In this document: positions 3,611 through 59,455 of the stretch, piece after piece | How positions within the stretch are numbered: position 1 is the first letter of the stretch | Layout of the letters: each line of letters opens with the position of its first letter | Source of the DNA: Mobula hypostoma | Taxonomy: Eukaryota | Direction: 5' to 3' | Assembly: GCF_963921235.1 (NCBI RefSeq) | Contig: NC_086097.1 | Location: 148,678,001-148,742,000, forward strand | Length of the DNA stretch: 64,000 nt | Position numbers and translations under genes: made by a program | Notes under the pieces: generated by a model | What the model was told of the DNA's origin: nothing | Databases searched by the model: none | The model's input: only the letters and a program-made list of their open reading frames with translations

Positions 3611-4306
3611 TTCATCATCTGATTGAGAACTTTCTTACTTCCAGTAAGACTTGCCATATGGAGTGTATTTGTACCACTCTCTACCAGAACAACACATGGG
3701 CTGTGGAGAGGATTAATTTAGACATAACGTTCACAAGCTCACATCAGCATTTCATCATGACATTCTGATTTTCTCTGTTAATCATTAGAATTAAACATCT
3801 CAAGTTTCAAAGCAATTTCACAGACTTCCTACAACTCCTAAGATAGGTTCATTAAGTATGTTTTAAATGTGATTGTGGCAGCTAATGGATCACACAATAA
3901 ATGCTTCTCTGTGAAATAGGGCACATTTCGATAAAGAAAGCTTGTCAGTCATTCAACAGTTTCTGCCAGTTCGAATCGAGTTACTTTCCACTTTATGTTC
4001 TCCATTATTATTCCACATTCTGATGATGGTGGTAATTCCAAAAAGAATATAAAATGTGCCCTTTGGTGCTTAGTGCTCAGTGCCTCAACTAATTTTCCCG
4101 GCACGATATAGCAGTGAGTCACTGTGCAATCATAAGAATTTTGTTGGTTGTTTTCATCTAGACAAATCCGCTTTACATAGAAGAATCCTGGAGAATTTGT
4201 AGATAGCAGGAACAAGGAAAAGTAAAGGGAGATACGAGAAAAAGCAGAAAATACTGGAAGCATTCAGCAGGATTAACAGCAGCTGCAGAAAGAGAACTGA
4301 TATGTT

Positions 4307-5605
4307 AACAACAGGAATTCTGCAGATGCTGGAAATTCAAGCAACATACATCAAAGTTGCTGGTGAACGCAGCAGGCCAAGCAGCATCTATAGGAAGAGG
4401 CGCAGTCGACGTTTCAGGCCGAGACCCTTCGTCAGGACTAACTGAAGGAAGAGTGAGTAAGGGATTTGAAAGCTGGAGGGGGAGGGGGAGGTGCAAAATG
4501 ATAGGAGAAGACAGGAGGGGGAGGGATAGAGCCGAGAGCTGGACAGGTGATAGGCAAAAGGGGATACGAGAGGATCATGGGACAGGAGGCCTAGGGAGAA
4601 AGACGGGGGGGGGGTGACCCAGAGGATGGGCAAGAGGTATATTCAGAGGGACAGAGGGAGAAAAAGGAGAGTGAGAGAAAGAATGTGTGCATAAAAATGA
4701 GTAACAGCTGGGGTACGAGGGGGAGGTGGGGCCTAGCGGAAGTTAGAGAAGTCAATGTTCATGCCATCAGGTTGGAGGCTACCCAGACGGAATATAAGGT
4801 GTTGTTCCTCCAACCTGAGTGTGGCTTCATCTTTACAGTAGAGGAGGCCGTGGATAGACATGTCAGAATGGGAATGGGATGTAGAATTAAAATGTGTGGC
4901 CACTGGGAGATCCTGCTTTCTCTGGCGGACAGAGCGTAGATGTTCAGCAAAGCGGTCTCCCAGTCTGCGTCGGGTCTCACCAATATATAAAAGGCCACGT
5001 CGGGAGCACCGGACGCAGTATATCACCCCAGTCGACTCACAGGTGAAGTGATGCCTCACCTGGAAGGACTGTTTGGGGCCCTGAATGGTGGTAAGGGAGG
5101 AAGTGTAAGGGCATGTGTAGCACTTGTTCCGCTTACACGGATAAGTGCCAGGAGGGAGATCAGTGAGGAGGGATGGGGGGGACGAATGGACAAGGGAGTT
5201 GTGTAGAGAGCGATCACTGCGGAATGCAGAGAGAGGGGGGAGGGAAAGATGTGCTTAGTGGTGGGATCCCGTTGGAGGTGGCGGAAGTTACGGAGAATAA
5301 TATGTTGGACCCGGAGGCTGGTGGGGTGGTAGGTGAGGACCAGGGGAACCCTATTCCTAGTGGGGTGGTGGGAGGATGGAGTGAGAGCAGCTGTACGTGA
5401 AATGGAGGAGATGCTTTAAGAGCAGAGTTGATAGTGGAGGAAGGGAAGCCCCTTTCTTTAAAAAATGAAGACATCTCCCTCGTCCTAGAATGAAAAGCCT
5501 CATCCTGAGAGCAGATGCGGCGGAGACGGAGGAATTGCGAGAAGGGGATGGCGTTTTTGCAAGAGACAGGGTGAGAAGAGGAATAGTCCAGATAGCTGTG
5601 AGAGT
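4307..5605 (-). mobile_element. Young 5'-truncated Penelope-like element (Neptune type): RT thumb, Cys linker, GIY-YIG endonuclease and terminal repeat
   Basis: ORF 4733-5059 GVIYCVRCSRRGLLYIGETRRRLGDRFAEH...GMNIDF; linker TYPCKRNKCYTC; HSYLDYSSSHP..CKNAIPFSQFLRLRRICS; TSD CTGATATGTTA at 4297-4307 and 5606-5616. Confidence 0.93.
4403..4440 (-). ncRNA. Minimal type I hammerhead ribozyme in the PLE terminal repeat
   Basis: Minus strand TAGTC-CTGACGA-AGG(GTCTCGG)CCT-GAAA-CGTC-GACTG: core CUGANGA/GAAA, stems I and II, palindromic ACGU stem III, GUC site. Confidence 0.85.
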
Positions 5606-8124
5606 CTGATATGTTACTTTGTTTCACTTTCCTGACTGCTTGTGTTTTTATTTCAGGTTTTCAACATCTGCAAATCAGTAGCAAGGACAGGATAATGGAT
5701 ACAAATTTTAAAGTCAAGCTTAACTATGTGGAGACTGAAACGACGCTTGACATTAACACAATGAAGATTAACGTTTAGGATGAAATATAGAAGAAATGAT
5801 TGTAGTAATAGAATTAATGAAGCCTGGGAAAGAGGATTCTTTGAGGGTAGATTTTGCTGATAAAAACAGCATCCAAGTCAAGATGCCATTAGCAAATGGC
5901 TCATCAGGCAACAACCTGTAAAGAGACTGGGAGGTGCTAATAGCGCAAGCAGCCTTTTAGCAACATGATATTTATGCTGCTAATCAACTGTTTTTGACCA
6001 CATAGTGAATAATTATAGATAGGAAATCTTACACCTTCAGGATGTAGATTGTAAATATAATAACGTAAATATGTTAACCCTTCCACTGCCAAGGACATGA
6101 AACACAATTGCAGCAACTCTGCTATCTGGATATATAGAGAATCTAAGCATGGGATTTTATGATCTGCATTGTACAAAACCTTGTGGATCGTGAAACATTT
6201 AAGAAGAATGCCCATGATCACATGAAAACCCTGAACTGTAGCAACGTACTAAAACACAGCAATCATTTAAACAGTACTTCCCTTCCTTAATATCTCAGCA
6301 TATTTTTTCCCAGTCTTAAGCTGAACTGTGCAGATCTGAACATCAAATTTCCAGTCTACATTGTTAATTGATCTGGGGGCACAATTAATGACTTAAAGAG
6401 AGGGGATAAATACTTTTTTGGTTTCTGATCCAATATTGAGCAGTTAGGTTTGGGCAATTGCTGAAGACAATTTTTTTGGCTGGAAGGCATTCATTGTCAA
6501 ACTTCACATATAAATAATCAACAGCTTAGTGGGACACAAGGGGAAAGAGTCCCTCCTACAATAAAGTTACATTTTTTATAAAAGTGGAAGCAATGGAATT
6601 TCATTCCACATATTTGAATTAAATATGACAGTGGAATGGCATGAAAGCTGAAATACTTCAGATTTAAATTTAAAATAACTTTTAAATCAGCTTCCTCAGC
6701 TTTCTTAATTTTTCCCCTCTTTCGTCCAACCACATCATTCCCCACCCGTACTTCATCCGAGCAAAAGTCTCACAAGCTGCAGGACGACTTGGTAAGCTGA
6801 CAGACTGTCAGAAGCTGCTCACAGAGAAACCCTGATCTTTGCAAGATTTTAGCAGAAAAATTTATTCCTGACTCGCCTGTAGCGAGAGTGAAGAATGGCT
6901 ATGTTCCCTTTCTGCATGGATTTGAAATCACAGTGGTACACAAATCAGTGGATCAGGGTAAAATGGCCATTCATCATTCCCAAAGCCTGAATCAACAGGC
7001 CAAAAATAAGTCATGGATTTTTCCTTAGGTTCAAATAATTTGCCTGTTAATGTGAAGTGACAGGTAAAGAAAGCAAATCTCCCTACCTTCGCCCATTGCA
7101 ATATGAATTTTGGCTTTGGATAACAGAATAGTCATTATTTAATAAAACTGAAATAAAGATTACTTGACTGGCGTTTCTAGCAGTAAAATCTGATCACAAA
7201 GCTTTGAAAAAATAAAAAGAGACAATGCTTGGCATACTTGTTAGCGCAAGTCATAATTTAACCTCATAGGGTGAAGCTTAGGGATGCAATTTTAGTGGCA
7301 AACTGCTGACTTCAAAACTCTGCATTGCCAAATACTAGTGTTTCTTCTACTACTCAAAAGAAAGAAGCCACCATATATTTTGTGAAACTTTGGATTGTGT
7401 TCTATCACTGCAATCAGCCTTTGGAGGAATCATTATAACACAGTTTCATCTGCCTGTTCAGGTGGGTAATTCCCAAAGATAAATGCGAGGATCTGCATTA
7501 TACCTCTTTCATCCACATACCTGCTCTTCACTTGCTCCTTGCACAGAATGATTTATACTTTTCTCTATAATAAAAAAATAGCTGCAAAAGGCATTAGTTT
7601 TCTTCAAAAAATATCAAGTAGTGTCATCAGGTCCTATACAAATACAAACAGGATTTCATTTATTACTTTAAGTGTTACATATCTGGACTGCCGAATGGGA
7701 ATAGTAAATAAGGCAGCTTTTGTCCTGCAGATTTCGCAGCTAGCCCAAAATCTTCCATAAACTTGAGTTTATCAAAAAAGCTGCTGTCCTTATCTTATTA
7801 AGCATCCAGTTCCTTCACCCTTCATTATTAATCCACTATTGACTCAGTTTTGAAATTTTCATTCTCTTATAAAATTTGGCCTTGGCCTCCACCCTTTTTT
7901 CTCCTCCAACTTCCTTTGACCATAATAGAACAATTTCTTTGTCTTACTGTTGATAGCTTGCCCTGTCCAAAGCCTAAGTTCTGGAATTCACCCCTAAACT
8001 GTGGTCTCCTCTCACATCTTAGGTTATCCACCATAAAATCTACCACTTTCCCTTCCTTAATACAGTATTTCCGTTCTTGTCTCAATATTTTTTATTTACC
8101 TAACTCTGTCTGAGAATTTGATGG

Positions 8125-8265
8125 TGAATCCTGATGAAGGATCTCAGCCCAAAAGGTCAACTATTTATTCCTCTCCATAGATGTTCCCAGACTTGTTGAG
8201 TTCCTACAACATTTTGTGTTTGTTGCTCTGGATTTCCAGCATCTGCCAAATCTTTTCTGTTTAAG
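8125..8265 (+). mobile_element. Old PLE terminal-repeat fragment with a decayed hammerhead
   Basis: cctgatgaaggatctcagcccaaaaggtc followed by ...gatttccagcatctgc. Confidence 0.7.
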
Positions 8266-8520: not shown

Positions 8521-9970
8521 CAAACAAGAGAAAATCTGCTGATGCTGGAAATCCAAGCAACACAACACAAAATGCTGGAGGAACTCAGCAGGCCAGGCAG
8601 CATCTATGGAAAAGAATAAACAGTTGATGTTTCTGGCCGAGACCCTTCATCAGGACTGGAAAAAAAGATGAGAAGTCAAAGTAGGGAGAGGGAAGGAAGA
8701 ACCACAAGGTGATAGGAGAAACCAGGAGGGTGGGTGGGGGGGCGGGCTGCTAGACAGAAGGTCATTGAAGAAAGAAAAGGGTGAGGAGCATCAATGGGAG
8801 GTGATAGGCAGGTAAGGAGATAAAGTGAGAGAGGGAAATGGAAATGGGGAATGGTGAAGTGGGGGGGGGGCATTACCAGAGGTTCAGTAAATCGATGTTC
8901 ATGCCATCCAGTTGGGGGCTACCCTGACGGAATGTAAGATGTTGCTCCTCCAACCTGAGTGTGGCCTCATTGCGACGGTAGAGGAGGCTATGGACTGACA
9001 AGTCGAAATAGGAATGGGAAGTGTGATTAAAATGGGTGGCCACTAGGAGGTCCTGCTTTTTCTGGCAGACTGAGTGGAGGTGCTTGGCGAAGCAGTCTCC
9101 CGATCTGCTTTGAGTCTCACCGATATACAGGAAGCCACACCAGGAGCACTGGATACAGTAGATGACCCCAACAGACTCACAGGTGAAGTTTTGCCTCACC
9201 TGGAAGGACCATTTGGGGCCCTGAATGGTAGTGAGGGACAAGGTATAGGGGCAGGTGCAGGAATTGCTCCACTTGCATGGATAGGTACCTGGAGATCAGT
9301 GGGGAAAGAGGAATAGACAAGGGAGTCACATAGGGAGCAATTCACTACAGAAAGGAGAAAGTGGTGGGGGGGGGAGGAAGATGTGTTTGGTGGTGGGATC
9401 CACTGGAGATTACGGAAGTTATGGAGAATTATCTGCTGGGTGCAGAGGCTGGTGGGGTAGAAGGTGAAGACAAGAGGAAGCCTATCCCTGAGGGGATGGC
9501 GGGAGGATGGGGTGAGGGCAGACGTGCACAAAGTGGAAGAGATGCGATTGAGGGCAGCGTTGATGGTGAAGGAACGGAAGCCCCTTTCTTTGAAGAAGGA
9601 GAAAATCTCCTTAGTTCTAGAATCGAAGGCTTCATCCTGACAGTAGATGCGATGGAGATGGAGGAATTGAGAGAAGGGGATGGCATTTTCATAAGTAACA
9701 GGGTGAGAAGAGCTATAGTCTGGATAGTTGTGAGAGTCAGTGGGTTTATAATAGACATCAGTAGATAAGCTGACTCCAGAGATAGAGACAAGAGATCGAG
9801 AAAGGGGAGGGAGGTGTCAGAAATGGAGCGGGCAAATTTGAGGGCAGGGTGGAAGTTGGAGGCAAAGTTGATGAAGTCGACGAGCTCCACAAGTGTGCAG
9901 GAAGCAGCACCAATGAATTCACCGATGTAGCACAGGAAAAGTTGGGGAGTAATACAAGTTCCACGTAGAC
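8521..9970 (-). mobile_element. Older Penelope-like element (RT C-terminus, GIY-YIG, terminal repeat)
   Basis: FINFASNFHPALKF..SISDTSLPFLDL; VIYCIQCSWCGFLYIGETQ; hammerhead remnant at 8621-8659 (CTGATGA...GAAACATC). Confidence 0.9.
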
Positions 9971-21720: not shown

Positions 21721-23877
21721 TTATTGTTCTGACTTCTCATCCAAAACTTATATTATATATTTTATACCATTCTGAGACTGAGAAGGTTGTAAATGTTGCT
21801 GTGAATAGGAGCAGAAGCAGGATCCCACCATGTCCAATATCTGCTATTCCAGAATGTCAGCCCTCTCTGGACGATGACCTTAATTTGGAACAAAATCAAT
21901 AAAATATACAATAGATCTAGTGGCACTGAAAGGGAAGACAAGTTAAAATGAAAGGTTAATCCCTTAACCTCATCCTATAAAGTTAAATTGTCTTTATTTT
22001 TAAATTTTGATAGACTTTTATATTTTTTCAGCATTGTTTGTTGTAGAGTCTGAGGGTTTGTAATTTTAATCCACAGCAGGATAAAGTGAATATATAACTT
22101 TGAATATCTTGCTGCTTTTTGACTTTATTCTACCTTGTCAGCTGACAAAGCTATAGAATGGGTGTTTAACAAGTCATAGTGGTCAATGGCAGCCCACAGG
22201 CTCCAACTCCATTAGCTCACAATTAGAAATGAATGGCTATTGATCTACATATCGCCAGGAGCTGTTTCTGTGACAACATCTCCGTGTCCCCTTATCTTTC
22301 TAAAACTTCTACACCAAAAATACATTACCTAAAAACTCACCGAGTAAATCAGATGTTTGCAGATAATCACACTTTAACTCTGACAAAATCATCTGCTTAT
22401 AATGTTTCAGAAATGTCTGTGTTCGCCTCTATACAGTCTCTTCAAACTGCTATGAGCTTAAAGATTCCTTTCTGACTTTCTTATTACGCTGGGATCCATA
22501 TTCTGGTTCAACCCTGTCTATTCCTGTGTTTACATTATGATGATCGGTATTGGTCTAGCAGTTGAGTAACATGCAGACAAGGAGTCCTCGGTTTCTGTCA
22601 ATGTATGAAGCCTATTAGAACTTAAAAGAGGCTGCTGACATGAATTCTGGTCTTACAAGAGTTATTCACCGAATAGCTCTGGCTGTTGCATTTTGGTCTG
22701 CCCTCATCTTGTGTGTAATTCTGCTGAGCACTGAAATCATCTTGAGAGGAATAAAACTCTATCTCCATCCCTCTCGTCATTTACCTCAGCACTTTTATTT
22801 TCAGCTTTCTGCATCAACCCAAACAAAAGCCGGCAGTTTTTGAGATACTATTTTAAGACATACATATTCCTTTCCTAATTAATTGAATATTCTTTTCCCT
22901 TACGAGTCTACCTTTCCACTTTTAATTTGCTATTTTTAAAATCCCAAGCTGAATGTCTCCTAATTACTGGCTCCTGATTAACCCCTTCCTCCCCCTTACT
23001 GCTGCTAAGCCTTGAATATCCCCATGAACTTCTGATCACAAAATTTGAAAAGACATCTACACCAAAAAATAATCTGTTCCTCTCTGTTGTACTTAATAAA
23101 CCAGAGCAGAATGCTGAAAAGCATAGCCAAGATAAACTGTTAGGTCTTCTATTGACTGATGGGGGAGATAAAAAAATTGAAGATTGTGAAAATGATGACT
23201 TAAAGTGATTCATCAAGATCTGCCACTTGAGACAATATTCATGAATAAAGACTGTTAAGTATTGATGGTATAAAATACAGCTGTTTGCTGATAGCTACTA
23301 ATAGAATGTGTGTTATTGTAAATCCTTCATTTATCTAGCCTGGCACAAAATATTCTATTGTCTTAAGTAAGAACATAATTGTTCAGTTATCAGCTGCCCA
23401 GGAAATGAAGGTGAAATGAATAGTTGTTTACACCAGTGTACGATTTTTTAATCTCATCCTTCCTACTGCATGCAATTAAATTTCACTCATGTCTATTCTC
23501 GACCAGCCCTTGTGTTTTAATTTTTTAATTATATCTCCATTAATGCTTTGTATAATTTTTCAGAATGTTTTAATAGTTTAGCCACAGCTGTCATGATCAC
23601 CAAATCAGTTTACTTTTGTAGCTTTTTTCACTTCCTCAATGTAATTATAAATGGCATGATCTGTCTGAATGGCTCACAAAACAAAACTTTTCACTCCCTC
23701 TCAGTGCATGTGACAATCATAATCCAATACAAATACCAATACTATTACTGCATTCTGTAACAAATCAGTGGTACTAGTAAGTTACAGAATTGTAGCATAT
23801 AATCAGATGTGAAATTTGAACGTTGTGGCTGAACTGGAACATTCTAAAGAACGGAGACAAAGAGACAACTGTTTACA

Positions 23878-24030
23878 AACACCAGAAAATCTGCAAATGC
23901 TGAAAATCCAAAGCAACACACATAAAATACTGGAAGAACTCATCAGGTCAGGCAGCATTTATGGAAAAGATTAGATAGTCAATGTTTCAGGCCGAGACCC
24001 TTCTGCTGTCTGACCTGCTGAGTTCCTGAG
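23878..24030. mobile_element. Old PLE-end fold-back mini-element with a short right arm
   Basis: gaactcatcaggtcaggcagca...gagacccttc|tgctgtctgacctgctgagttc; flanks AACTGTTTACA / AAGTGTTTACA. Confidence 0.7.
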
Positions 24031-24529
24031 AAGTGTTTACATCCTTTTTTTGAGCAGGTGATAGTGGATAATCCAGAATAGATGAAAGTATTCTCATAGT
24101 CACAAGAGGAGAAACATTTAACATATCACAAAGATTTCAAATCAAACATGGAGAAATCATCAGATGCGCTACAAACAACTCATTACCAGTTTTTAACATA
24201 AAACCTGAAACAGAAAAATGATTGATATCTTCTTAATGGAGTCAAGAGTGTGAGCAAGTGTGAGCAGATAATTGCACTTTGGCAAAATTGACTCACTCAT
24301 CAAAGATCAGATTACTTGTGCAATGCAGGAACCCAGCTGGAGGAAATGGCTATTACAAGAAGCAGAGCTAACGTGAGATGTGTGCGTACCGTAGCTGTGA
24401 AGCTGTCCAAAGTCAGGCCAGAAATGCTTCATTGTCCTTTCTCTGGGAGGGGAGGAAATCACTTCATATTCCATCCATAGTCTGTGCACATGTATTAGAT
24501 TAGTATTTGACAAAGATTGGCCTTAACTG

Positions 24530-26289: not shown

Positions 26290-26860
26290 CTGTGTTTTAC
26301 AGGTGTACTTCTGAGAGCATCCTGACAAATTGCATCTCCATCTGGTATGGGAGCAGTCAAGCATCAGACCGGATGTCCCTACCAAGGATTGTGAAAACAG
26401 CTGAGAGGAACATAGCTGTCTTCCTACCATCCGTCTGTGAGATTTATCAGGAGTGCTGTGTACGCAAAGCCCTTAGTATTATTAAGGATCCCATCCATCC
26501 ACCCAGCATCCTCTTTGACTGTCTACCATCAAGCAGGAGACTCCGATACATAAAAACAAGAACGGTCAGGATGAAAAACAGTTTCTTCCCCAGGCCATTA
26601 GGCTTACGAACTCTCTGCTGCATTGTATTCGACGAGTCACTGGTTAATGTGTTCCGTACATAATACTATTTAATATTAATGCACTTTAGTTTGTTATTTA
26701 TATGTGTCTCTGTAGATTTTATCCTTACCTTCAGAAGTTATCGGGTGTTATGTGCATTATGTGTACCATTGTGCTTTTACATGCTGGTTTGGAGAAACGT
26801 TGTCTCATTTCTATATACATTATATGGTTTTATATGTTATATATATGTATATAGTTAATG
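26290..26860 (+). mobile_element. Rex1/Babar 3' fragment
   Basis: FYRCTSESILTNCISIWYGS...RTVRMKNSFFP. Confidence 0.85.
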
Positions 26861-38350: not shown

Positions 38351-38367
38351 CCATCTCATATGACTAC

Positions 38368-38587
38368 GCAAACAACAGGAATTCTGCAGATGCTGGAAAT
38401 TCAAGCAACACACATCAAAGTTGCTGGTGAACGCAGCAGGCCAGGCAGCATCTCTAGAAAGAGGTACAGTCGACGTTTCAGGCCGAGACCCTCGTCAGAA
38501 GGGTCTCGGCCTGAAACGTCAACTGCACCTCTTCCTAGAGATGCTGCCTGGCCTGCTGCGTTCACCAGCAACTTTAATGTGTGTTGC
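38368..38587. mobile_element. Young PLE-end fold-back mini-element (88-bp inverted arms)
   Basis: Arms 38405-38492 and 38500-38587; unpaired ~34-nt extension on the left; TSD CATC(T/C)CATATGACTAC at 38352-38367 and 38587-38602. Confidence 0.92.
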
Positions 38588-38719
38588 ATCCCATATGACT
38601 ACTTCATTTTTCCCCTCTCACTCCACTTGAATACCCCTGCTGCTCTGGATAGTTTGCGCATTCTTCCTCCTGGTTCCAGCCTCATCTAAAAAGGGAGCAA
38701 GAATGTCCATTGGACAAGT

Positions 38720-40062: not shown

Positions 40063-42337
40063 TCAAGGAGTCGGCAGTCAATGAGTATGCCTCAGCTGTC
40101 ACGGACTTTATCTGGAAATGCACAGAGGACTGTGTGTCTCGCAAGATGATCCGGGTATTCCCTAACCAGAAACTTTGGATGAATTATGAGGTCAAGTCCC
40201 TTTTGAAGGCTAGAGCTGAGGCTTTTAGGTCCAGGGATACCAGTCGCTACACGGAATCCAAGCGTGAACTCCGGAAAGCCATTAAGGGCGCCAAGAGGCA
40301 ATATCGAGCCAAGTTGGAAGCCCAGGCTAACTAGAGGGATGCCGGTAGACTATGGCAGGGTCTAAGTGAGATCACTGGGCGCAAAGAAAAGGCTGGGAAT
40401 ATCAATAACGGTGGCACTTCTCTTCCTGACGAACTTAACGTATTCTATGCAAGATTCGAACAGAAGAGGAGCGTCCCACTCCCTCCGAATGAACCAGACC
40501 TGGTGGCATTGAGATTCATTGTCACCGAGGAGGACATTAGAAGGGCCTTCCTGAAGATAAATCCAAGAAAGGTGATGGGCCCAGCTGGCGTCCCAGGATG
40601 GGTGCTCCGGGCCTGTGCAAGCGAGCTAGCTGGAGTGTTTGCTGACATCTTCAACTGCTCCTTGCTTCAGTCTAAGACCCCTCCTGTTTTAAGAAGGCAA
40701 CGATAATCCCGGTGCTGAAGAAGAGCAAGGTGGCATGCCTGAATGACTATCGACCTGTGGCTCTGACATCAATTGCTATGAAGTGCTTCAAGCAATTGGT
40801 TATGGCACACATCAACCACAGCCTACCGGTCAACCTCGACGCTTTGCAATTCGCCTACCAGAGCAACAGGTCAACGGCAGATGCCATCTCTCTGGCCCTA
40901 CATTCCTCCTTGAAACACCTGGAGAATAAAGACGCATATGTAAGGCTCCTTTTCATTGACTACAGCTCTGCCTTCAATACCATCATTCCAAATAAACCGA
41001 TTCTTAAGCTCCAGAACCTGGGCATTAGCACTCAGATCTACAGCTGGATCTTCAACTTCCTTACAGACAGGACCCAGGCTGTAAAAATAGGGGACAAGCT
41101 CTCCTCTACAATCATTCTGAGCACCAGTGCCCCACAAGGCTGTGTACTCAGCCCCCTGCTGTACTCACTGTACACCTATGATTGTGTAGCCAAGTTTCCA
41201 TCAAACTCAATATACAAGTTTGCTGATGACACCACAATTGTAGGCTGTATCTCGGGTAATGATGAGTTTGAGTACAGAGATGAAATTAAGAACCTGGTGG
41301 CATGGTGCAAAGACAATAACCTATCCCTCAATGTCAGCAAGACAAAGGAATTGGTTGTTGACTTCAGAAGGAGTAGCGGACTGCACAACCCCATTTACAT
41401 CGCTGGTGCGCAAGTGGAACAGGTCAAAAGCTTTAAGTTCCTCAGGGTCAATATCACAAATGACCTGACTTGGTCCAAGCAAGCAGAGTCCACTGTCAAG
41501 AAGGCCCACCAGCGCCTTTACTTCCTGAGAAAGCTAAAGAAATTTGGCTTGTCCCCTAAAACCCTCATTAATTTTTATAGATGCACTGTAGAAAGCATTC
41601 TTCTAGGGTGTATCACAACCTGGTATGGAAGTTGTCCTGTCCAAGATCGGAAGAAGCTGCAGAAGATTATGAACACAGCCCAGAACATCACACAAACCAA
41701 TCTTCTGTCCTTGGAGCAACACACATCAAAGTTGCTGGTGAACGCTGCAGGCCAGGCAGCAACTCTAGGAAGAGGTACAGTCGATGTTTCAGGCCGAGAC
41801 CCTTCGAGACTGATGAAGGGTCTCGGACTGAAACGTCGACTGTACCTCTTCCTAGAGATGCTGCCTGGCCTGCAGCGTTCACCAGCAACTTTGATGTGTG
41901 TTGCTTGAATTTCCAGCATCTACAGAATTCCTGTTGTTTCCGTCCTTGGACTCACTTTACACCGCACGCGGTCGGAGCAGTGCTACCAGGATAATCAAGG
42001 ACACGACCCACCCAGCCAACACACTTTTCGTTCCTCTTCCCTCCAGGAGAAGGCTCAGGAGCTTGAAGACTCATACGGCCAGATTTGGGAACAGCTTCTT
42101 TCCAACTGTGATAAGACTGCTGAACAGATCCTGACCCAGATCTGGGCCGTACCTTCCAAATATCCGGGCCTGCCTCTCGGTTTTTTTGCACTACCTTACT
42201 TTCCCTTTTCTATTTTCTATTTATGATTTATAATTTAAATTTTTAATATTTACTATCGATTTGTACTCCAGGGAGCGCGAAGCGCAGAATCAAATATCGC
42301 TGTGATGATTGTTTGATGACAATAAAGTAAAGTAAAG
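40063..42337 (+). mobile_element. Rex1/Babar LINE, 5'-truncated, well-preserved RT, interrupted at 41716-41939
   Basis: [64 protein letters not shown]; aataaagtaaagtaaag tail. Confidence 0.93.
41716..41939. mobile_element. Young PLE-end fold-back mini-element (90-bp inverted arms) inserted in the Rex1 RT
   Basis: Arms 41716-41805 and 41815-41904; ~34-nt extension on the right; TSD TTC(T/C)GTCCTTGGA at 41703-41715 and 41938-41950. Confidence 0.92.
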
Positions 42338-42986
42338 GTTTTGGAATAAGTGGTTGTTTAAATTGAGCAACATATAAAATGCAGGAGGAACACAGCAGGT
42401 CAGGCAGCATCTACAGAAATGAGTAAGTCGATGTTTCAGGCCAAGGCTGTTCATTGAGACTGGAAAGGAAGGGGGAAGATGTCAGAATAAGAGGGGAGGG
42501 GGAGGAGGACAAACTAGAAGGTGATAGGTGAAGCCAGGTGGGCGGGAGAGGGGGAATGAAGTAAGAAGCTGAAAGGTGGTAGGTGGAAAAAGTAAAGGGC
42601 TGGAGAAAAAGAAATCTGATAGGAGAAGAGAGTGGACCAAGGGAGAAAGAGAAGGAGGCAGGGCATCAGGAGGAACTGATAGGCAGGTGAGGAGAAGAAG
42701 AAAAAGGCCAGAGTGGGGAATTGAAGAAGAGGGATGGGGGAGGGAGAACAAATTACCAGAAGTTGGAGAAATCGATGTATGTCATTAGGCTGGAGGCTAC
42801 CTAGATGGAATATGAGATGTTGCTTCTCCAACCTCAGAGTGGCCTTGTCATGTCAGAAAAAGAGGCCATGCACTGACACGTCAGAATGGGAACAACAGGA
42901 ATTCTGCAGATGCTGGAAATTCAAGCAACACACATCAAAGTTGCTGGTGAACGCAACAGGCCAAGCAGCATCTATAGGAAGAGGCG

Positions 42987-43024
42987 CAGTCGACGTTTCA
43001 GGCCGAGACCCTTCGTCAGGACTA
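42987..43024 (-). ncRNA. Minimal type I hammerhead ribozyme
   Basis: Same sequence as 4403-4440. Confidence 0.85.
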
Positions 43025-43748
43025 ACTGAAGGAAGAGTGAGTAAGGGATTTGAAAGCTGGAGGGGGAGGGGAAGATGCAAAATGATAGGAGAAGACAGGA
43101 GGGGGAGGGATAGAGCCGAGAGCTGGACAGGTGATAGGCAAAAGGGGATACGAGAGGATCATGGGACAGGAGGTCCGGGAAGAAAGACGGGGGGGGGGGG
43201 TGACCCAGAGGATGGGCAGACTGGGAGACCGCTTTGCTGAACATCTACGCTCTGTCCGCCAGAGAAAGCAGGATCTCCCAGTGGCCACACATTTTAATTC
43301 CACATCCCATTCCCATTCTGACATGTCTATCCACGGCCTCCTCTACTGTAAAGATGAAGCCACACTCAGGTTGGAGGAACAACACCTTATATTCCGTCTG
43401 GGTAGCCTCCAACCTGATGGCATGAACATTGACTTCTCTAACTTCCGCTAGGCCCCACCTCCCCCTCGTACCCCATCTGTTACTCATTTTTATGCACACA
43501 TTCTTTCTCTCACTCTCCTTTTTCTCCCTCTGTCCCTCTGAATATACCTCTTGCCCATCCTCTGGGTCACCCTCCCCCCGCCCCGTCTTTCTTCCCGGAC
43601 CTCCTGTCCCATGATCCTCTCGTATCCCCTTTTGCCTATCACCTGTCCAGCTCTCGGCTCTATCCCTCCCCCTCCTGTCTTCTCCTATCATTTTGCATCT
43701 CCCCCTCCCCCTCCAGCTTTCAAATCCCTTACTCACTCTTCCTTCAGT

Positions 43749-43786
43749 TAGTCCTGACGAAGGGTCTCGGCCTGAAACGTCGACTG
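43749..43786 (+). ncRNA. Minimal type I hammerhead ribozyme
   Basis: TAGTCCTGACGAAGGGTCTCGGCCTGAAACGTCGACTG. Confidence 0.85.
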
Positions 43787-44711
43787 CGCCTCTTCCTATA
43801 GATGCTGCCTGGCCTGCTGCGTTCACCAGCAACTTTGATGTGTGTTGTCAGAATGGGAGCAGGATTAGGAATTAGAATGATTGGCCACTGGGAAATCCTG
43901 CTTTTGTAGATGGAGTGGAGACGCTTGTTTAGTGGGAGGTTTACACAGGTTTAATTTTTTGTTGCAACCACATATAATATGAAATAAAACAATGAAGAAT
44001 TTGTACATCAATAAACAAGGTCTCAAAAATCCTTGTTTTAATTACATAATAACTGATAGTTAATGTGTTACCTTGTTTTGTTCTATCAAGATACAGATCT
44101 ATTATCGAGGGGAATACTTATCTGAGCTCACCATGGATCTACACTGAGGCAAAATTTCGGTTGTGGGGTAATTTATTCAATTTTATTGACTGACCTGCTG
44201 GTGATGGACCACATGTGAAAGAAGTCAGAGAGACAGCCATTTGATTCCTGAAGATAGAAGTGACATCAATTATCGGAAAAATCCATGTTCACAGTCAATT
44301 GTAATAATGTGCAGAAGGAAAGATATAGAACATCAAGGTAATGTATTAACTGATTTATATAAGTATTAGTTTATATCAATGCTAGGCTTACCAAAAGTAA
44401 ATAATAGTAACCCCTTTATAGCCATGGGCAAAACAAGTTTGCATTTATCACTCACAATGAACGATTATACTGTAAGTAAGGTGAACTTTGATTTTGACTG
44501 TCACTCTCTATTTGAGGTATGCTGAGGAACTAAAGACCTTAATAATGTAGATCTGCAATTGCACCCTTGCTACTAAAAGACACATTAGGACATGTTTGAT
44601 AATTATTATATCGTTCAGTTGGAGAGGTCTTATTATTATTTCAGCACTCAGATATGATTTGATATTGCACACAGAACATAAGGCTATAATTGTATTTATG
44701 TATGAATGTAA

Positions 44712-45386: not shown

Positions 45387-45671
45387 TGTAGCGGTGTGCT
45401 ACACACAGCACTAGAATAACCACACGGAGTTGGTGAGTTGGAGTTGCGATGAAAGAGATTTATTCAAACTTCGCAGCCTGCTTTAAAGCCTTCCTGTTCC
45501 CGCCCTCCCTGGACGGAACTACTGTGAGGAATGCATATTCCCAGACCCCTTCCGTGCGCGGGATTTTCCCCCTGCTGGTGAAGATGGCCTGGCGCCCTTT
45601 TTGGGGCCGGCCCTCTGCCTGCGCGCGCCGTTGTGAGCCGGTTCGTGGGTGCCAGAAAGTGGGTCGCCACA
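45387..45671 (-). repeat. Gypsy 3' LTR
   Basis: Minus strand TGTGGCG...CGCTACA; AATAAA near 45459-45464; preceded on the minus strand by PPT GGGGGGGGTTTA (45672-45683). Confidence 0.95.
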
Positions 45672-48600
45672 TAAACCCCCCCCAGAACCGGCGATACCTC
45701 CCCCCAATGTCCACAGTCTGGATCGGCCTCGGTTTGGGAGGTCTGCCCCTGCGCCGCGGTGCCTGAGCCTGGACCGGCTGCGCCAAGTCCACATGGGCCA
45801 GTTTGAGTCGGTCCACCGTGAAAACCTCCTCTCTCCCCCCAATGTCCAGCACGAACGTGGACCCATTGTTCCTGATCACCTTGAACGGCCCCTCGTAGGG
45901 CCGCTGTAGCGGTGCCTGGTGTCCGCCCCGTCGTACAAAAAGAAACTTACAGTTCTGCAGGTCTTTGGGTACGCAGGTCGGGCTCTGTCCGTGCTGTGAA
46001 GTGGGTATGGGGGCCAGGTTACCGAGCCTCTCCCGTAGTCTGTCCAGGACTGCTGTGGGTTCTTCCTCTTGCCCCCTTGGGGCTGGTATGAACTCTCCTG
46101 GGACGACCAGGGGTGCGCCATACACCAACTCGGCCGACGAGGTGTGCAGATCCTCTTTGGGCGCCGTGCGGATTCCGAGCAGGACCCAGGGAAGCTCGTC
46201 CACCCAGTTAGGCCCCTCCAGGCGGGCCATGAGAGCCGACTTCAGGTGAGGGTGGAAACGCTCTACTAGTCCGTTCGACTGTGGGTGGTAGGCAGTTGTG
46301 TAGTGTAGCTGCGATCCTAAAAGGCTGGCCATAGCCGACCACAGGCTGGAGGTGAACTAGGCGCCCCTGTCGGAGGTAATGTGGGCCGGTACCCCAAAGC
46401 GTGCTACCCAGGTTGCGATCAGTGCTCGGGCACAGGATTCAGAGGTGGTGTCGGTGAGCGGGACTGCCTCTGGCCATCTGGTGAACCGGTCTATCATAGT
46501 TAGGAGGTACCGCGCTCCTCGTGACACTGGCAGGGGCCCCACGATATCCACATGAATGTGGTCGAACCTCCGGCGGGTGGGTTCGAACTGCTGCGGCGGA
46601 GCCTTGGTGTGCCGCTGCACCTTGGCCGTTTGGCACTGCATACACGTTTTGGCCCATTCACTGACCTGTTTACGAAGTCCATGCCACACGAACCTGTTGG
46701 CGACCAGCCGGACGGTTGTCCTGATGGAGGGGTGTGCTAAGTTATGAATGGACTCGAAAACCCGCCGGCGCCAGGCTGCTGGGACAACGGGGCGGGGTTG
46801 GCCGGTAGCTACGTCACATAGTAGGGTCCTCTCACCTGGGCCTACGGGGAGGTCTTGGAGCTGCAAACCGGAGACTGCAGTCCTATAACTGTGGATCTCA
46901 GCGTCTGCCTGCTGTGCCTCTGCCAGCGCTGCATAGTCCACCCCCTGGGACAGGGCCTGTATGGTAGGTCTGGAAAGTGCGTCCGCCACGACGTTGTTCT
47001 TTCCAGAGACATGCAGGATGTCTGTCGTGTACTCGCAGATGTAGGACAGATGTCGTTGGTGGTGGGACGACCAGGGGTCGGACACCTTACTGAACGCGAA
47101 GGTAAGTGGTTTGTGGTCTGTGAACGCGGTGAAGGGCCTACCTTCTAAGAAGTACCTGAAATGCCAGATTGCCAGGTATAGTGCCAATAGCTCCCGGTCG
47201 AAAGCACTGTATTTGAGTTCGGGTGGTCGTAGGTGTTTGCTGAAGAACGCCAGGGGTTGCCAGCGACCCTCGATGAGTTGTTCCAGCACTCCACCAACTG
47301 CTGTGTTGGATGCGTCCACCGTGAGGGCAGTAGGAACGTCCGTTCTGGGGTGCACTAGCATCGTGGCATTTGCCAAGGCTTCTTTGGTTTTAACGAAAGC
47401 GGCTGCAGCCTCTTCGTCCCAGGTAATGTCCTTGCCCTGACCCGACATTAGAGTGGACAGGGGGCGCATGGTTCGGGCTGCTGAGAAGAGGAAATGGTGG
47501 TAGAAATTCACCATACCCACGAATCCCTGCAGGCCTTTGATTGTGTTGGGTCGGGGGAAGTTGCGGACCGCGTCTACCTTGGCGGGCAGTGGGGTTGCCC
47601 CACCTTTAGTAATCCTGTGGCCCAGGAAGTCGATGGTATCGAGTCCGAACTGGCATTTGGCTGGGTTGATTGTAAGGCCGAATTTGCTCAGGTGGGAGTA
47701 GAGCTGGCGGAGGTGGGACAGATGCTCCTGCCGACTACTGCTGGCTATGAGGATGTCGTCCAAATAGATGAATGCAAAGTCCAGGTCGTGTCCCACCGCG
47801 TCCATTAGCCACTGGAAAGTCTGTGCGGCATTCTTTAGACCAAACGGCATTCGGAGGAATTTGAGAAGTCCGAACGGGGTGATGAGTGCTGTTTTGGGGA
47901 TGTCGTCCGGATGTATCCCCGGATGAGGTCTACCTTGGAAAAGATCCTTGCGCCGTGTAGGTTTGCTGCAAAGTCTTGAATGTGCGGCACAGGGTAGCGG
48001 TCTGGCGTTGTGGCCTCGTTCAGTCTGCGGTAGTCACCGCATGGTCTCTAGCCCCCCGTTGTCTTGGGCACCATGTGCAGGGGGGAGGCCCATGGACTGT
48101 CGTATGATCCCCAATTCCTCCATCTTCTTGAACTCCTCCTTTGCCAGTCGGAGCTTGTCCGGGGGAAGCCTTCGAGCACGGGCGTGGAAGTGTGGTCCCT
48201 GGGTCGGATGTGGTGCTGTACTCCGTGTCTGGGCATGGCTGCCGTGAACTGCGGCGTCAGTACTGATGGGAAATCTGCCAGGACCCTGATGAATTCATCG
48301 TTGGACAGCGTGATGGAGTCCAGGTGTGGGGCTGGCAACTTGGCTTCACCCAGGGAGAACGTTTGAAAAGTCTTGGCGTGGACTAGTCGCTTCCCTTGCA
48401 GGTCGACCAGCAGGCTGTGGGCTTGCAGAAAATCCGCCCCCAGGAGTGGTTGGGCCACGGCGGCCAGTGTGAAGTTCCACGTGAACCAACTGGAGCAGAA
48501 CTGTAGCCGCACAGTGTGGGTGCCGTAGGTTCGTATTGTGCTGCCATTTGCGGCCCTCAGGGTGGGTCCCGGTTCGCTGTTGCGGGTGTCGTAACTCATT

Positions 48601-48706
48601 GGAGGTAAAACACTGATCTCCACTCCGGTGTCGACCAAAAATCAGCGACCCGACTGCTTGCCCCAGATGTACAGGAGGCTGTCCTGATGGCCAGCCGCCG
48701 TAGCCA
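45672..48706 (-). pseudogene. pol: Gypsy pol (protease, RT, RNase H, integrase) with frameshifts, deletions and an in-frame stop at 46357
   Basis: [86 protein letters not shown]. Confidence 0.95.
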
Positions 48707-49381
48707 TCAGCGGCGGCTGGCCCTGGCATTTCCCGGGAATTTGCAGGGTGGTCTACAGCGGCGGGCCTCTGTGCCCCACCGCTGGTGGTAGAAGCACCAT
48801 TGTTCATTGGGCTCTGCTGCCAGGCCTGGTCTGGTCTGTCGTTGGGCACGCGGCTTGGTGATCTGTGCGACGGACGCCCCTCTCTCCTTCTTGGCATTCC
48901 ACAGCACATCTGCTCGGGCCGCCACCTCCCGGGGGTCGCTGAAATCTGCGTCAGACAGCAGCAGGCGTATGTCCTCGGGCAGTTGCTCTAGGAACGCCTG
49001 CTCAAACATGAGGCAGGGTTTGTGTCCTTCAGCCAGGGCCAGCATTTCGTTCATTAATGCTGACGGCGGCCTGTCTCCCAAACCATCCAGGTGCATTAAG
49101 CGGCGTGCTCATTCGCACTGTGAGAGTCCAAAAGTCCTTATGAGCAGGGCTTTGAATGCTGTGTATTTGCCGTCCTCCGGGGGCGACTGTATAAACTCCT
49201 CAACTTGTGCAGCAGTCTCTTGGTCGAGGGAGCTCAGCATGTAGTAGTAGCGAGTGGACTCCGAGGTTATCTGCCGAATGTGGAATTGTGCTTTTGCCTG
49301 TTCCAACCACAGACGGGATCTCAGCGGCCAAAAGCTTAGCAGTTGTAACGAAACTGCGTGAACAGATGCGGCGTCGGTCAT
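48707..49381 (-). pseudogene. gag: Gypsy gag, frameshifted
   Basis: AVSLQLLSFW...QAKAQFHIRQIT...YTAFKALLI; LGDRPPSALMNEM; CFYHQRWGTEARRCRPPC zinc motif. Confidence 0.85.
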
Positions 49382-49405
49382 CTCTGGCCCAAATATTGTT
49401 TGGGT

Positions 49406-49419
49406 CGTCGGGGTCACCA
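49406..49419 (-). other. Primer-binding site complementary to the 3' end of tRNA-Trp
   Basis: TGGTGACCCCGACG, 2 nt downstream of the 5' LTR. Confidence 0.88.
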
Positions 49420-49421
49420 AA

Positions 49422-49706
49422 TGTAGCAGTGTGCTACACACAGCGCTAGAATAACCACACAGAGTCGGTGAGTTGGAGTTGCAATGAAAGAGATTTATTC
49501 AAACTTCGCAGCCTGCTTTAAAGCCTTCCCATTCCCGCCCTCCCTGGGCGGGACTACTGTGGGGAATGCATATTCCCAGACCCTTTCCGCGCGCGGGATT
49601 ATCCCCCTGCTGGTGAAGATGGCCTGGCGCCCTTTTTGGGGCCAGCCCTCTACCTGCGCGCGCTGTTGTGAGCCGGTTCGTGTGTGCTAGAAAGTGGGTC
49701 GCCACA
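49422..49706 (-). repeat. Gypsy 5' LTR
   Basis: Direct repeat of 45387-45671 with about 18 substitutions counted by eye. Confidence 0.95.
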
Positions 49707-51355: not shown

Positions 51356-53519
51356 AAAAAAAGCAGTCAACTGTATGTGTATGGGGAATACAGCAACATA
51401 CTACCAGACTTTTGAAACCCCTGTACAAGGTTGTAAAATGGGAAAGGTATGATGGTGTGTAATTTTCTGAGAAATTTATGATCTTTGTTGTTGACATTGT
51501 TTGATTATTTTTATTCTACAAATGACTCTGAACACTGTGGCCTGCACAGTAGAGGTAGATGGTGGTACTGATGTAGCAGCTACTGGCATTGCTAAACGAT
51601 CTTGCCATGCTTCATCTAGAAAGCTCACTGCCAGTAGTGTCGCCACTGAGCTATTCATTGAATGAGAATTACAGCAGCTAAATACTTGGGGGGAAAGCAC
51701 ACTCTGTGAACTCTGGAATGTATTTGAACCATCTGCAATGAGCTGTAAAACTGCCCAATCAGGTCTTCTGATAACAGCAGAGTACTGCTCCAGCACAGAC
51801 ACAAACTGCAATAAGGGGACGTGATGCTTTCATCTTTGTGCTGTGAATCTTTAACAATGGTTTCGGGTGGCAACCAAAAGCAATAGTTATACCAGTAAGG
51901 GAGAAAACTTATGACATCAAAACGTATTGCGAGTTAGGGTACTGATAGTAAATTTTGGATGAATTTGTTAGTAGCTGCCAGAACCCATCTCTAAATTAAC
52001 ACTTAGGTGAATGAAGTAAAATGTAACCCAGCATCAGGTCTATCCTTCAGTATTTATGGTTTCCTCATTCAAAAGTCATTTAAAATCTACTATGAATCTG
52101 AGGCAGTCAGCCAACACTGACAGGATAGGTTCTTTAAGTCCCGGGATTTCTCGGCAACCATTTTTTCACGACACCTCTGCTTTGCCTTGACAAATGACTT
52201 ACTTCTTGAGTACAAATTGCTAACATCTTAGCTTCACATATATCACAGTATCAAGGCCTAAATGGAACTCTGACGTTGCCCCTGGTGCCTGTCATTTGTA
52301 ACTGAGGAGATTTTCTTTTCACTTCTCTTTTCTCAGACATTTATTACTTGTACACATGCTTTCTATCAATACAGATATCAACAGAACATACTGCAAAAAT
52401 GACAAACGATAGATGACAAATCAGGGCAGGGGATTGGTTCTTCCAATACAGAATAAGAGATTAAATTGTAAAATCCTAGAGGCACTGGGATGAATCTCAA
52501 CAATTACTGCAAACATGAAACACCTGCTGACTAAGATGGATGGATTCTGTCTGAGTAAAGCTTGGATCTGATGGTTATCAACGGGTCCCCACTCTCCAAG
52601 TACATGGTAGAATCACTGACAATGGTTGGATTTCATTCACAAATTGATGATGTGAAGTTTTTTTCCCTCATCTGTCTGATTAGTGTACATATTTATCACC
52701 AATCACGCACTTCGTTATTAATGCCAGACAGTATTTTCTCCAGTCTTTATCTTTCTCGAACTGCCCCCTCTCTCACAATATTCCTGGCTCTGCCTTTTAA
52801 TATCAGGTTTTTTACCTGTGTTCTGCTTTTCTCTGTCTTCATGATATGATATTGTATCTGCTTCTAACTATCAATGTGTATGTGTGCATTCCCTATTTTT
52901 ATCCAGTCTTTCTTGGGGGGGGGGGGGGTTATTAAAATGAATGTTTGAGCTAATTGTTTCTGAGACATGCCAGAAGAATTGCATGTTCTTTCATGGGCTT
53001 ATGTATTACCAAGTGCTTTTCATAGCAGGATTCAGCAACGATGAAAGAAATTTTGTTAAAGACGTTATGACTCTGCTCTCTGGATCTATAAACAATTTAC
53101 ATAGACCTTCATGAGATCAGCTCTCAATAAGCTTTGAAACATAACAAGTATCCTTGAAAATTTTGTTCCACTCTCTCTAGTATTGTCACAAATTTATTAA
53201 ATGACATTTATATATACATCCTTGAAATTATCCCATAGATACAGACATTCTTTGGAGCCTTAGGCTAGCTTACAATTGTCACATAATGGCAGAGTATTTA
53301 AGTTCATTTAAGTTTTCATTAATTTAATATTTAGATACTTTCCAGCTGAAACCTGAAAGGGAATGCTCAAGAACAGCATCCTTAGCTGCTTCTTTTCCTC
53401 AACTTGGGGTCACTGAAGCTAATGGATCCAATGACTCCTTCAACAATGGGGCCTTTTATTACTCCTCTGAGGTGGCAAAAAGGTTAACATAGAAAACAAA
53501 CAAAGTTCAGATTTGATCC

Positions 53520-53706
53520 CACACACACAATGCTGGAGGAACTCAGCAAGTCAGCAGCATCTATGGATGGGAATAAACATTTGCCATTTCAGGTAGAGAC
53601 ATTGACTGCTTACTCCCCTCCAGACAGCCAGCCTGACTTGCTGAGGTCCTCCAGCATTTTGCATGTGTTGCTGAAGACTTCAAGCATCTACAGAATCTCT
53701 TGTGCC
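53520..53706. mobile_element. Old PLE-end fold-back mini-element
   Basis: aatgctggaggaactcagcaagtcag is inverted against ctgacttgctgaggtcctccagcatt; tail on the right. Confidence 0.75.
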
Positions 53707-58235: not shown

Positions 58236-58447
58236 AACACAAGAGACTGCGGATGCCAGAACCTGGAACAGCAAAACAATCCGCTGTAAGAAATCAGCAG
58301 ATCAAGTAGCATGTATGAGAAGAAAGAAATTGTCCACATTTCAGATAGAAACCCTACAGTCCTGTTGCAGTTTCAATTAAATGACGGTAATTCTTTTCCT
58401 CTAGCTGGTGCTACTTGAACCACTGAGCTCTTCCAATAGATTGTTGG
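58236..58447. mobile_element. Very old PLE-end fold-back mini-element
   Basis: Degenerate inverted arms (caatccgctgtaagaaatcagcagatcaagtagca / tgctacttgaaccactgagctcttccaatagattg); flanks GTACTTTG(TG)GGAA. Confidence 0.6.
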
Positions 58448-58774
58448 GTACTTTGGGAAGCCATGAGCTCCTTCTGCTCCTTCTGCTGTTTGTTCAGTTC
58501 ATCTGTGTGCTCTTGCTGCACTAATTTAAAATTCTAAACACTATCCCAAATAGTCTGTCTCCATCTTGAGCAGCCATGGCCTGCTAATACCAGCAGTCAG
58601 TGGGAATGTTGGAATTTTTCAAAGAGGCTTTGAATGCATCCTCTTTCTGTTGGGTAATCTCCTTCAGTGACAGAACTCAGAATGGAATGGCCATTTCCTG
58701 CCTAAAGACGCCAACAGAATATAATTTGGATCTCAAAAATAGGGAATTAGACATGGAAGTGGACACGGACACTG

Positions 58775-59455
58775 GGTCACATCCTAAACAAAATCAGAAG
58801 AAGTTTTGGAAATACTCGACAAGACAGGCTGCATCTGAAGGAAGGGAAACAGAGTTAATGCTCCAGGTCAGAGGCTCTTCATCAGAACTGAAAAGGAAGC
58901 AAATGAACACACTCTCTTCCAGGATAGATAAATGATTTCCCTGATTCTCACCAGATCATTCTCCACAGTTTCTGCCACCTTCAAAAAAATTCCATCAGCA
59001 GGCACATCTCTTCTCCTCACCTTTCAGCAATTTGTAGAGACAATTTCCTTTGTGTTTCTCTGGTCCTCACCTTTGTTCTCTACAACCACCTCCCATTTTC
59101 CAGCATTTCCTTTGCCACAGTAGGTGTTGCAATATTTATCCTTTGAGCTCTTCCCTTGTCACTGCCCAGGGACACGATCTTTCCAGATGAAGTAGTAATA
59201 TACTTCCACTTCTTCCAAACCTGTGTACTGCATTCAGTGTTAGCAATGTGGTTTTCTCTAAAGGGAGAAACTAACAGATTTGGTGATCCACTTTAAGTTC
59301 ACCACAGTATCTTGAGCTTGCTGCCCGTCACTTTAATTCCACAATACACTCCCACTCTGAGCTAGCTGTCTGGAATCCCCTGTACTGCTGCACAAAGTTT
59401 GAAGAAATGTACCTCATTAATGCAGCCTCATAGTGAACTACACAAGTTCAGGTAA
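58775..59455. mobile_element. Old PLE remnants: minus terminal repeat followed by plus linker/GIY-YIG
   Basis: ctcttcatcagaactg (hammerhead core on the minus strand); VYCIQC*QCGFL*RE; HFNSTIHSHS. Confidence 0.65.

Follow-up and report, generated by a model that had tools for sequence, protein, structure and literature searches.

In this study, we analysed a fold-back insertion at 41.7 kb of a 64,000-nt stretch of Mobula hypostoma DNA, referred to as the window throughout, and find that it is the shortest form of a published PLE insertion pattern and that its arms turn around within a hotspot of arm starts at the 5′ edge of the hammerhead motif. The insertion type is already published; the start hotspot, which is very probably real, is the one unexplained feature. 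We propose, with a probability of roughly 60%, that both target strands primed reverse transcription, that a boundary in the RNA brought both cDNAs to a stop and that they were then joined and trimmed.

The insert contains two arms of 91 nt each (41715–41805 and 41815–41905), which are 97% complementary, free of gaps and separated by a 9-nt spacer, and it is framed by a 13-bp TSD (41703–41715 and 41938–41950, both given on the plus strand) with a single C/T mismatch at a CpG; the last one to two bases of the left TSD are compatible with the arm as well. These values agree with the arms of about 90 bp and the 13-bp, one-mismatch TSD reported in an earlier note on this DNA, and an equally good TSD match at the same spacing was obtained at 5 of 9058 control positions. 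Read as element sequence, the tail-less arm (41715–41806, minus strand in element sense) is the 3′ end of a PLE and starts at core position 7/8 of the hammerhead, followed by three junction bases (41807–41809) absent from the family reference copy, and by the tail-bearing arm (41810–41938, plus strand), which starts at the C of the CTGANGA core and ends in a one-sided tail of ~34 nt (41905–41938, plus strand) of the type described in PMC11167929, PMC3846280 and PMC8557442. PMC3846280 and PMC8557442 describe an inverted 5′-truncated copy that carries a 30–40-bp tail on one side only and is enclosed as a unit by a single TSD, and an inverted truncated copy with a one-sided 30–40-nt tail within a single TSD is what is found at 41.7 kb. 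Once the element is recognised as a PLE and the motif as its hammerhead, neither of which the earlier note had named, the anatomy is the published one, and under nearly all mechanisms weighed the insert is almost certainly an ordinary head-to-head PLE product. A MITE or foldback DNA transposon was ruled out, since the tail renders the ends asymmetric and the arms derive from the 3′ end of a retroelement with GIY-YIG.

A sister short fold-back with a 16-bp TSD containing one mismatch is located at 38352–38602. As had been noted earlier, the two copies lie in opposite orientation (tail on the right at 41.7 kb, on the left at 38.4 kb) and are independent: their TSDs differ, and the best flank match spans 15 nt at an E-value of 0.17, or 12 nt at 0.066. 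With no likeness of the flanks above chance, the copies represent two separate events, and a segmental duplication is ruled out, as neither flank nor TSD is common to both above chance.

The insertion resides in a Rex1-like non-LTR retrotransposon (40335–42340, plus strand) with RVT_1 and PF09004 domains and a 3′ end with short tandem repeats. We tentatively take this host to be a Rex1/Babar LINE, with which the pair of RVT_1 and PF09004 is presumably associated. After removal of the insert and one TSD, the host frame is open for 407 codons up to the stop, and the emptied site aligns gap-free with two paralogous LINE copies of the window (676–990 and 26298–26591). The insertion had been placed inside a Rex1 RT, which is correct for the RT-bearing ORF but not for the RT core, as the insertion, at about residue 346, lies 3′ of it (Pfam RVT_1, residues 15–258). 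With the insertion in place, the host frame likewise runs on through the tail-less arm and into the tail arm, most of which it covers (40676–41905, 410 codons to the stop), probably by chance. Further downstream, the minus strand carries a Gypsy-like LTR retrotransposon (45387–49706) with 285-bp LTRs that are 94% alike and with RT, RNase H and integrase domains.

The arms of the 41.7-kb insert match the 3′ ends of longer elements within the window. As a ruler for element positions we used a young, 5′-truncated single-arm copy with a tail and an 11-bp TSD (4297–5616 including the TSDs, minus strand; copy proper 4307–5606), in which the C of CTGA is position 4435 and the predicted hammerhead cut lies between 4408 and 4407. 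Its 3′ end is 93% identical to the 41.7-kb tail arm over 129 nt. This copy encodes a GIY-YIG domain (Pfam PF01541, 4736–5254, E 1.5e-5, 25.6 bits at a cut-off of 22.6) and, between RT and EN, a CX4CXXC linker. A CX2-5CXXC linker is given in excerpts of PMC8557442 as a feature of Neptune and Nematis; the Penelope/Poseidon clade has no linker zinc finger. Because the CX4CXXC linker and the GIY-YIG domain are the features listed in PMC8557442 for this type, the parent, judged by its encoded domains, is an endonuclease-bearing GIY-YIG PLE of the Neptune/Nematis type, where the linker does not tell Neptune from Nematis; an assignment to Poseidon or the Penelope/Poseidon clade is ruled out by the presence of the linker zinc finger. 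Of the CCHH motif, whose two Cys lie between GIY and YIG, both His residues are present; in the 4.3-kb copy, Arg takes the place of the second Cys of CxxC, and an old copy at 8.5 kb reads CSWC. The PLE copies of the window are 5′-truncated and devoid of the RT core, and Pfam returned nothing for the RT-end fragments. To extend the analysis beyond the window, contigs of 4 of 24 sequencing runs were mapped to the single-arm ruler copy rather than onto the 41.7-kb insert, with depth not to be equated with copy number. In run X1, which may come from the source sample, 273,284 of 27.6 million contigs matched the ruler, and in three other organisms 90,706–261,860 did; the PLE family is very abundant in these genomes. 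A raised depth over the terminal 150 nt of the ruler was disregarded, since older subfamilies diverge upstream and depth is not copy number.

The full motif of the parent family, read by eye, holds the core, helix II, a loop-less helix III and helix I, all parts of a minimal hammerhead. It resembles the metazoan PLE minimal hammerheads described in PMC4209133 in its CUGANGA core, an extra base before helix II, the loop-less palindromic helix III and a short helix I. It differs from these in that neither arm of the 41.7-kb insert is complete and in that the young family has G–U where, according to the description given there, G10.1–C11.1 is usual. In the tail arm, the motif (41810–41842, plus strand, read against the same description) comprises the core, helix II, GAAAC-GTC and the 3′ strand of helix I, with a predicted cut after 41837, and lacks the 5′ strand of helix I; the tail-less arm lacks CUGA. 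Motif pairs 100–700 bp apart on opposite strands are mentioned in PMC4209133. An Rfam scan of the window at the gathering score yielded no match, hammerheads included, and the predicted minimum-energy fold of the monomers is not the hammerhead fold.

Arm starts were mapped within the 64-kb window for the 14 PLE insertions that hold the terminal region, six of which are head-to-head. Five of these six (23.9, 38.4, 41.7, 53.5 and 58.3 kb) have an arm start at ruler 4425–4440, i.e. at most ~15 nt from the 5′ edge of the hammerhead core and about 25 nt upstream of the putative cleavage site. For 5 of 14 insertions, the binomial P is 7e-5, 5e-4 or 3e-3 at a mean arm length of 802, 500 or 300 nt, based on a small sample and on an interval picked post hoc; at the 300-nt null, the result fails a 100-fold correction. 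Both young tail arms start at 4435, the tail-less arms at 4430 (38.4 kb) and 4431 (41.7 kb), so that the near-identical tail-less start put forward earlier is confirmed, while the common CTGATGA start of the tail arms holds for the position, the C of CTGA, and not for the letters, as the 38.4-kb arm reads CTGACG with one A missing. The junction bases do differ between the two copies as stated, with three extra bases at 41.7 kb and a 1-base overlap at 38.4 kb; other junctions display overlaps of 0–3 bases. The supposed reproducibility of the turn-around site therefore survives as a hotspot and not as a fixed rule, the counter-example being a young long fold-back (42880–43861, TSD 12–15 bp, 3-base overlap) with a tail arm of 326 nt and a tail-less arm of 662 nt, which turns far from the hotspot. 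An older PLE of the same kind (42366–42892 and 43848–43905) harbours this insertion. In all three young fold-backs, tail-less ends lie at 4340–4342, and tail ends lie at 4307.

The remaining members of the cluster are older. An asymmetric fold-back at 23864–24041 with a decayed 14-bp TSD has a tail-arm start at 4430 and a partner arm of only ~27 nt starting at 4386; a short fold-back at 53518–53704 with a weak TSD starts at 4425 and about 4411–4415; and a very old one at 58237–58455, also with a weak TSD, starts at 4433 and about 4437–4440, its junction still reading CAG-TCCTG. Old copies are only 71–82% identical to the ruler, and the clustering therefore spans subfamilies. With the hammerhead as their best-preserved part, old copies may appear shorter than they are. 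An old short single arm with a tail (8129–8261, plus strand) probably starts with TCCTGA at 4437. One alignment extended to 4471, but the 60 nt upstream scored no better than shuffles, which leaves the boundary less sure, and the copy was therefore counted separately, bringing the cluster to six if added. No convincing TSD was found for the 30.6- and 8.1-kb copies. The other seven insertions with a terminal region have arms of about 145 to 1440 nt.

Several further arrangements were observed in the window. The PLE copies at 5606 and 31895, only 74% alike, have 5′ truncations that coincide to about 2 nt on the element; beyond this point, the element extends in the 8.5-kb copy and in a loose end of the contig mapping; the common truncation point is either chance or a second stop site. 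At 58781–59040, an old tail-less arm of ~145 nt is followed by an opposite-strand piece of the element's ORF, possibly another asymmetric head-to-head event. The old copies at 8129–8261 and 8523–9965 lie tail to tail with about 260 bp between them and seem to be separate insertions.

In the mapped contigs, the only opposite-strand joint among the 15 listed of at least 2177 joints is 4350/4438, found in 2, 2 and 1 contigs of runs X1, X5 and X10 (three organisms) and absent from X9. Of the 12 rows listed out of 617 whose joint has additional letters in between, two reach into the terminal 140 nt (4435 to 4349 and 4439 to 4329). All three joints are asymmetric forms or small internal inversions rather than the 41.7-kb form and feature the same upstream boundary; a symmetric turn at 4428–4435 does not occur among the 15 of at least 2177 joints listed. 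Loose ends at 4439 were observed in all four runs. The joints 4350/4438 and 4435/4349, multi-copy by depth, would also suit an in-place inversion of the hammerhead segment (88 nt) or partner arms that are very short. Searches by pattern for additional copies returned no match among viral sequences or genome contigs. In metagenomes, the fold-back pattern had no match either, and the single-arm pattern had one, bacterial-looking, which was taken as chance and dropped.

Head-to-head PLE copies have well-described relatives. Like the 41.7-kb insert, Pen2a_Av of Adineta vaga (PMC3846280) and the scheme in PMC8557442 combine a head-to-head copy, a one-sided 30–40-bp tail, a single TSD and a palindromic junction, as far as these sections describe them. 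In contrast to Pen2a_Av, the arms at 41.7 kb are only 90–130 nt long with no ORF between them, and starts cluster at the 5′ edge of the hammerhead. According to the parts of PMC11167929 on Poseidon of Anolis carolinensis (PAc), this element has, as here, two 3′ end points one tail apart, a hammerhead about 100–130 nt upstream and copies through the uncut hammerhead; unlike the PAc family, the family in the window carries the CX4CXXC linker absent from Penelope/Poseidon. The inverted repeats of D. virilis copies are reported to vary in size (PMC2377424), and such inverted repeats are described to yield siRNA (PMC3681739).

In L1 twin priming, both target strands prime, so that the 5′ part becomes inverted and the turn shows microhomology or additional bases. 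The L1 cDNAs copy different parts of the RNA, whereas here both copy the same terminal part.

Building on the family, anatomy, TSD, independence and arm-start clustering observed in the window, we suggest the following course for a single integration event of a Neptune/Nematis-type PLE. The GIY-YIG endonuclease would make a 13-bp staggered cut, and both exposed 3′ ends would prime reverse transcription on uncleaved element RNA, the distal start site giving rise to the arm with the tail and a proximal site about 34 nt upstream to the tail-less arm. Two-strand priming, two start sites and an uncleaved template are carried over by analogy from published work on other PLEs, where, in the parts of PMC11167929 concerned, the PLE protein cuts and extends both strands, two RNA start sites bound the tail and unprocessed RNA is the main substrate. 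Both cDNAs would halt on reaching the 5′ edge of the motif after 90–130 nt, a stop that we infer to be a boundary in the RNA, and would be joined head to head at or beside the short self-complementary AG-TC-CT, with the apex trimmed or patched. A short match explains the end joining but not why both cDNAs stop there, which an RNA boundary does.

Palindrome apices are known to get trimmed, and repair joints can carry templated inserts. The three bases at 41807–41809 would be a locally templated insert or the leftover of a trimmed palindrome apex, and a perfect palindrome with its centre at AG-TC-CT would give rise to both young junctions through small same-side deletions.

As a first guess at the nature of the boundary, it could be the point where the template ends on its 5′ side if the protein primes at the 5′ pLTR copy of the transcript, with a start site or splice acceptor at helix I. 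We rank this option slightly above a folded, protein-bound hammerhead acting as a block. For D. virilis Penelope, an intron ending at helix I (PMC4209133) and a transcript starting in the upstream pLTR, with a 75-nt intron beginning 46 nt later (PMC2377424), are described in the respective sections. Of 9 long arms read, 8 have a pyrimidine tract with a terminal YAG in front of the core; in the ninth, the YAG has decayed to CAT. It should be noted that this YAG ranks 4th to 5th of 10 in a pyrimidine-rich 3′ region, that CAG is equally explained by helix I pairing and that both young tail arms begin 2 nt within the predicted acceptor. No exon 1 sequence was seen; upstream of the 8.1-kb arm, a search for it gave scores that 31–130 of 300 shuffles matched. 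One contig of run X5 displays a joint at 5054–5137, an 82-nt skip with GT..AG ends on the element sense strand, which could be a copy from spliced RNA.

An alternative that we consider unlikely is self-priming, in which one cDNA from the tail end folds at the small palindrome by the core and copies back, with the second end set by the endonuclease. Self-priming from palindromes at inverted junctions is argued for in the relevant section of PMC3846280, and it would account for the near-symmetric turns (4435 versus 4430/4431), for the derivation of the young junctions from the AG-TC-CT palindrome, whose sequence the 58.3-kb junction retains, and for a private base common to both arms, as both arms would stem from one template by construction. 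This last point relates to the earlier claim that both 41.7-kb arms were copied from one template. Their shared variant (ruler 4371) is indeed present in both arms and in none of the five other young arms of the window, and parallel mutation would produce it with a chance of about 1.4%, so the base was either already in the template or converted later; it does not occur among the 40 variants listed out of 667 in the contig mapping. The one-template claim is compatible with this single base, which could also be a rare subfamily allele or a later conversion, and is otherwise weak, as 4 of 92 sites are not the same in the two arms, two through CpG decay, about as many as between separate copies (4–6 in 90–91 in comparisons of tail-less arms). 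The arms at 38.4 and 42.9 kb, moreover, each differ at one family-polymorphic site (4402 and 4380, respectively), where the X1 depth splits roughly one third to two thirds between the alleles; this hints weakly that two RNAs can supply the arms of one insertion and is hence a point against self-priming. No stable DNA hairpin is predicted for the 3′ ends as observed (4430–4435: 0 to −1.1 kcal/mol, rank 80 or worse of 650), and better hairpins (4439, 4442 and 4448) predict junctions that are not observed. Self-priming also cannot yield the 42.9-kb event, where the tail-less arm starts upstream of the end of the tail arm.

Less probable still is a non-autonomous palindromic mini-element, a master fold-back that was transcribed and retrotransposed whole, so that the junction is common by descent. 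All four short young arms carry a base at ruler 4390 that the long young copies lack, both tail arms begin exactly at 4435 and the two junctions are one small indel apart, as would be expected from such a master; the older short fold-backs, however, derive from other subfamilies with other junctions, and the tail-less ends coincide with the second RT start used by the long fold-back. That none of the 15 joints listed is a symmetric joint of high depth speaks weakly in the same direction, as hairpins assemble badly. Lowest we place the notion that there is no hotspot, random 5′ truncation with over-represented short arms sufficing while the hammerhead is easiest to recognise: the sample is small, the interval was chosen afterwards, arms below about 60 nt escape detection and short-arm starts range from 4386 to 4451, but in five insertions the start is set by the adjoining inverted arm and not by loss of similarity, no arm starts between 4451 and 4632 and joints at 4435–4439 recur in other runs.

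Two further candidates for the turn were rejected. Ribozyme cleavage does not set it, as the four young short arms start 23–28 nt upstream of the predicted cut, in line with an uncut template. A CCUUC/GAAGG RNA hairpin, which in the young long copies spans the breakpoint, would call for a 13-nt loop, which is absent, and one of its bases (4447) is a minority allele outside the youngest copies according to the contig mapping.

On its own, the 41.7-kb insertion is dead, an ordinary copy within a LINE. In a literature search of limited coverage, we found no description of the hotspot, of a palindromic mini-PLE or of shark or ray PLE structure; supplements outside that coverage, e.g. Fig. S2 of PMC11167929 or those of PMC4209133, may hold examples. 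In the excerpts concerned, PMC8557442 calls the formation of inverted structures in PLEs unresolved, and the steps after priming are unvalidated in PMC11167929. Under the proposed model of two primed cDNAs halted at an RNA boundary, a more far-reaching and rather doubtful version would be that this PLE lineage has a fixed 5′ boundary of its template RNA at helix I, with strong-stop-like runs repeatedly yielding 230-bp palindromes across subfamilies and ray-like species. With a recurring stop upstream of the cut site in a highly copied family, one- and two-template models would become testable by counting. If the fixed boundary holds true, short fold-backs would map the 5′ structure of the RNA and give a genome-scale read-out of second-end joining in PLEs.
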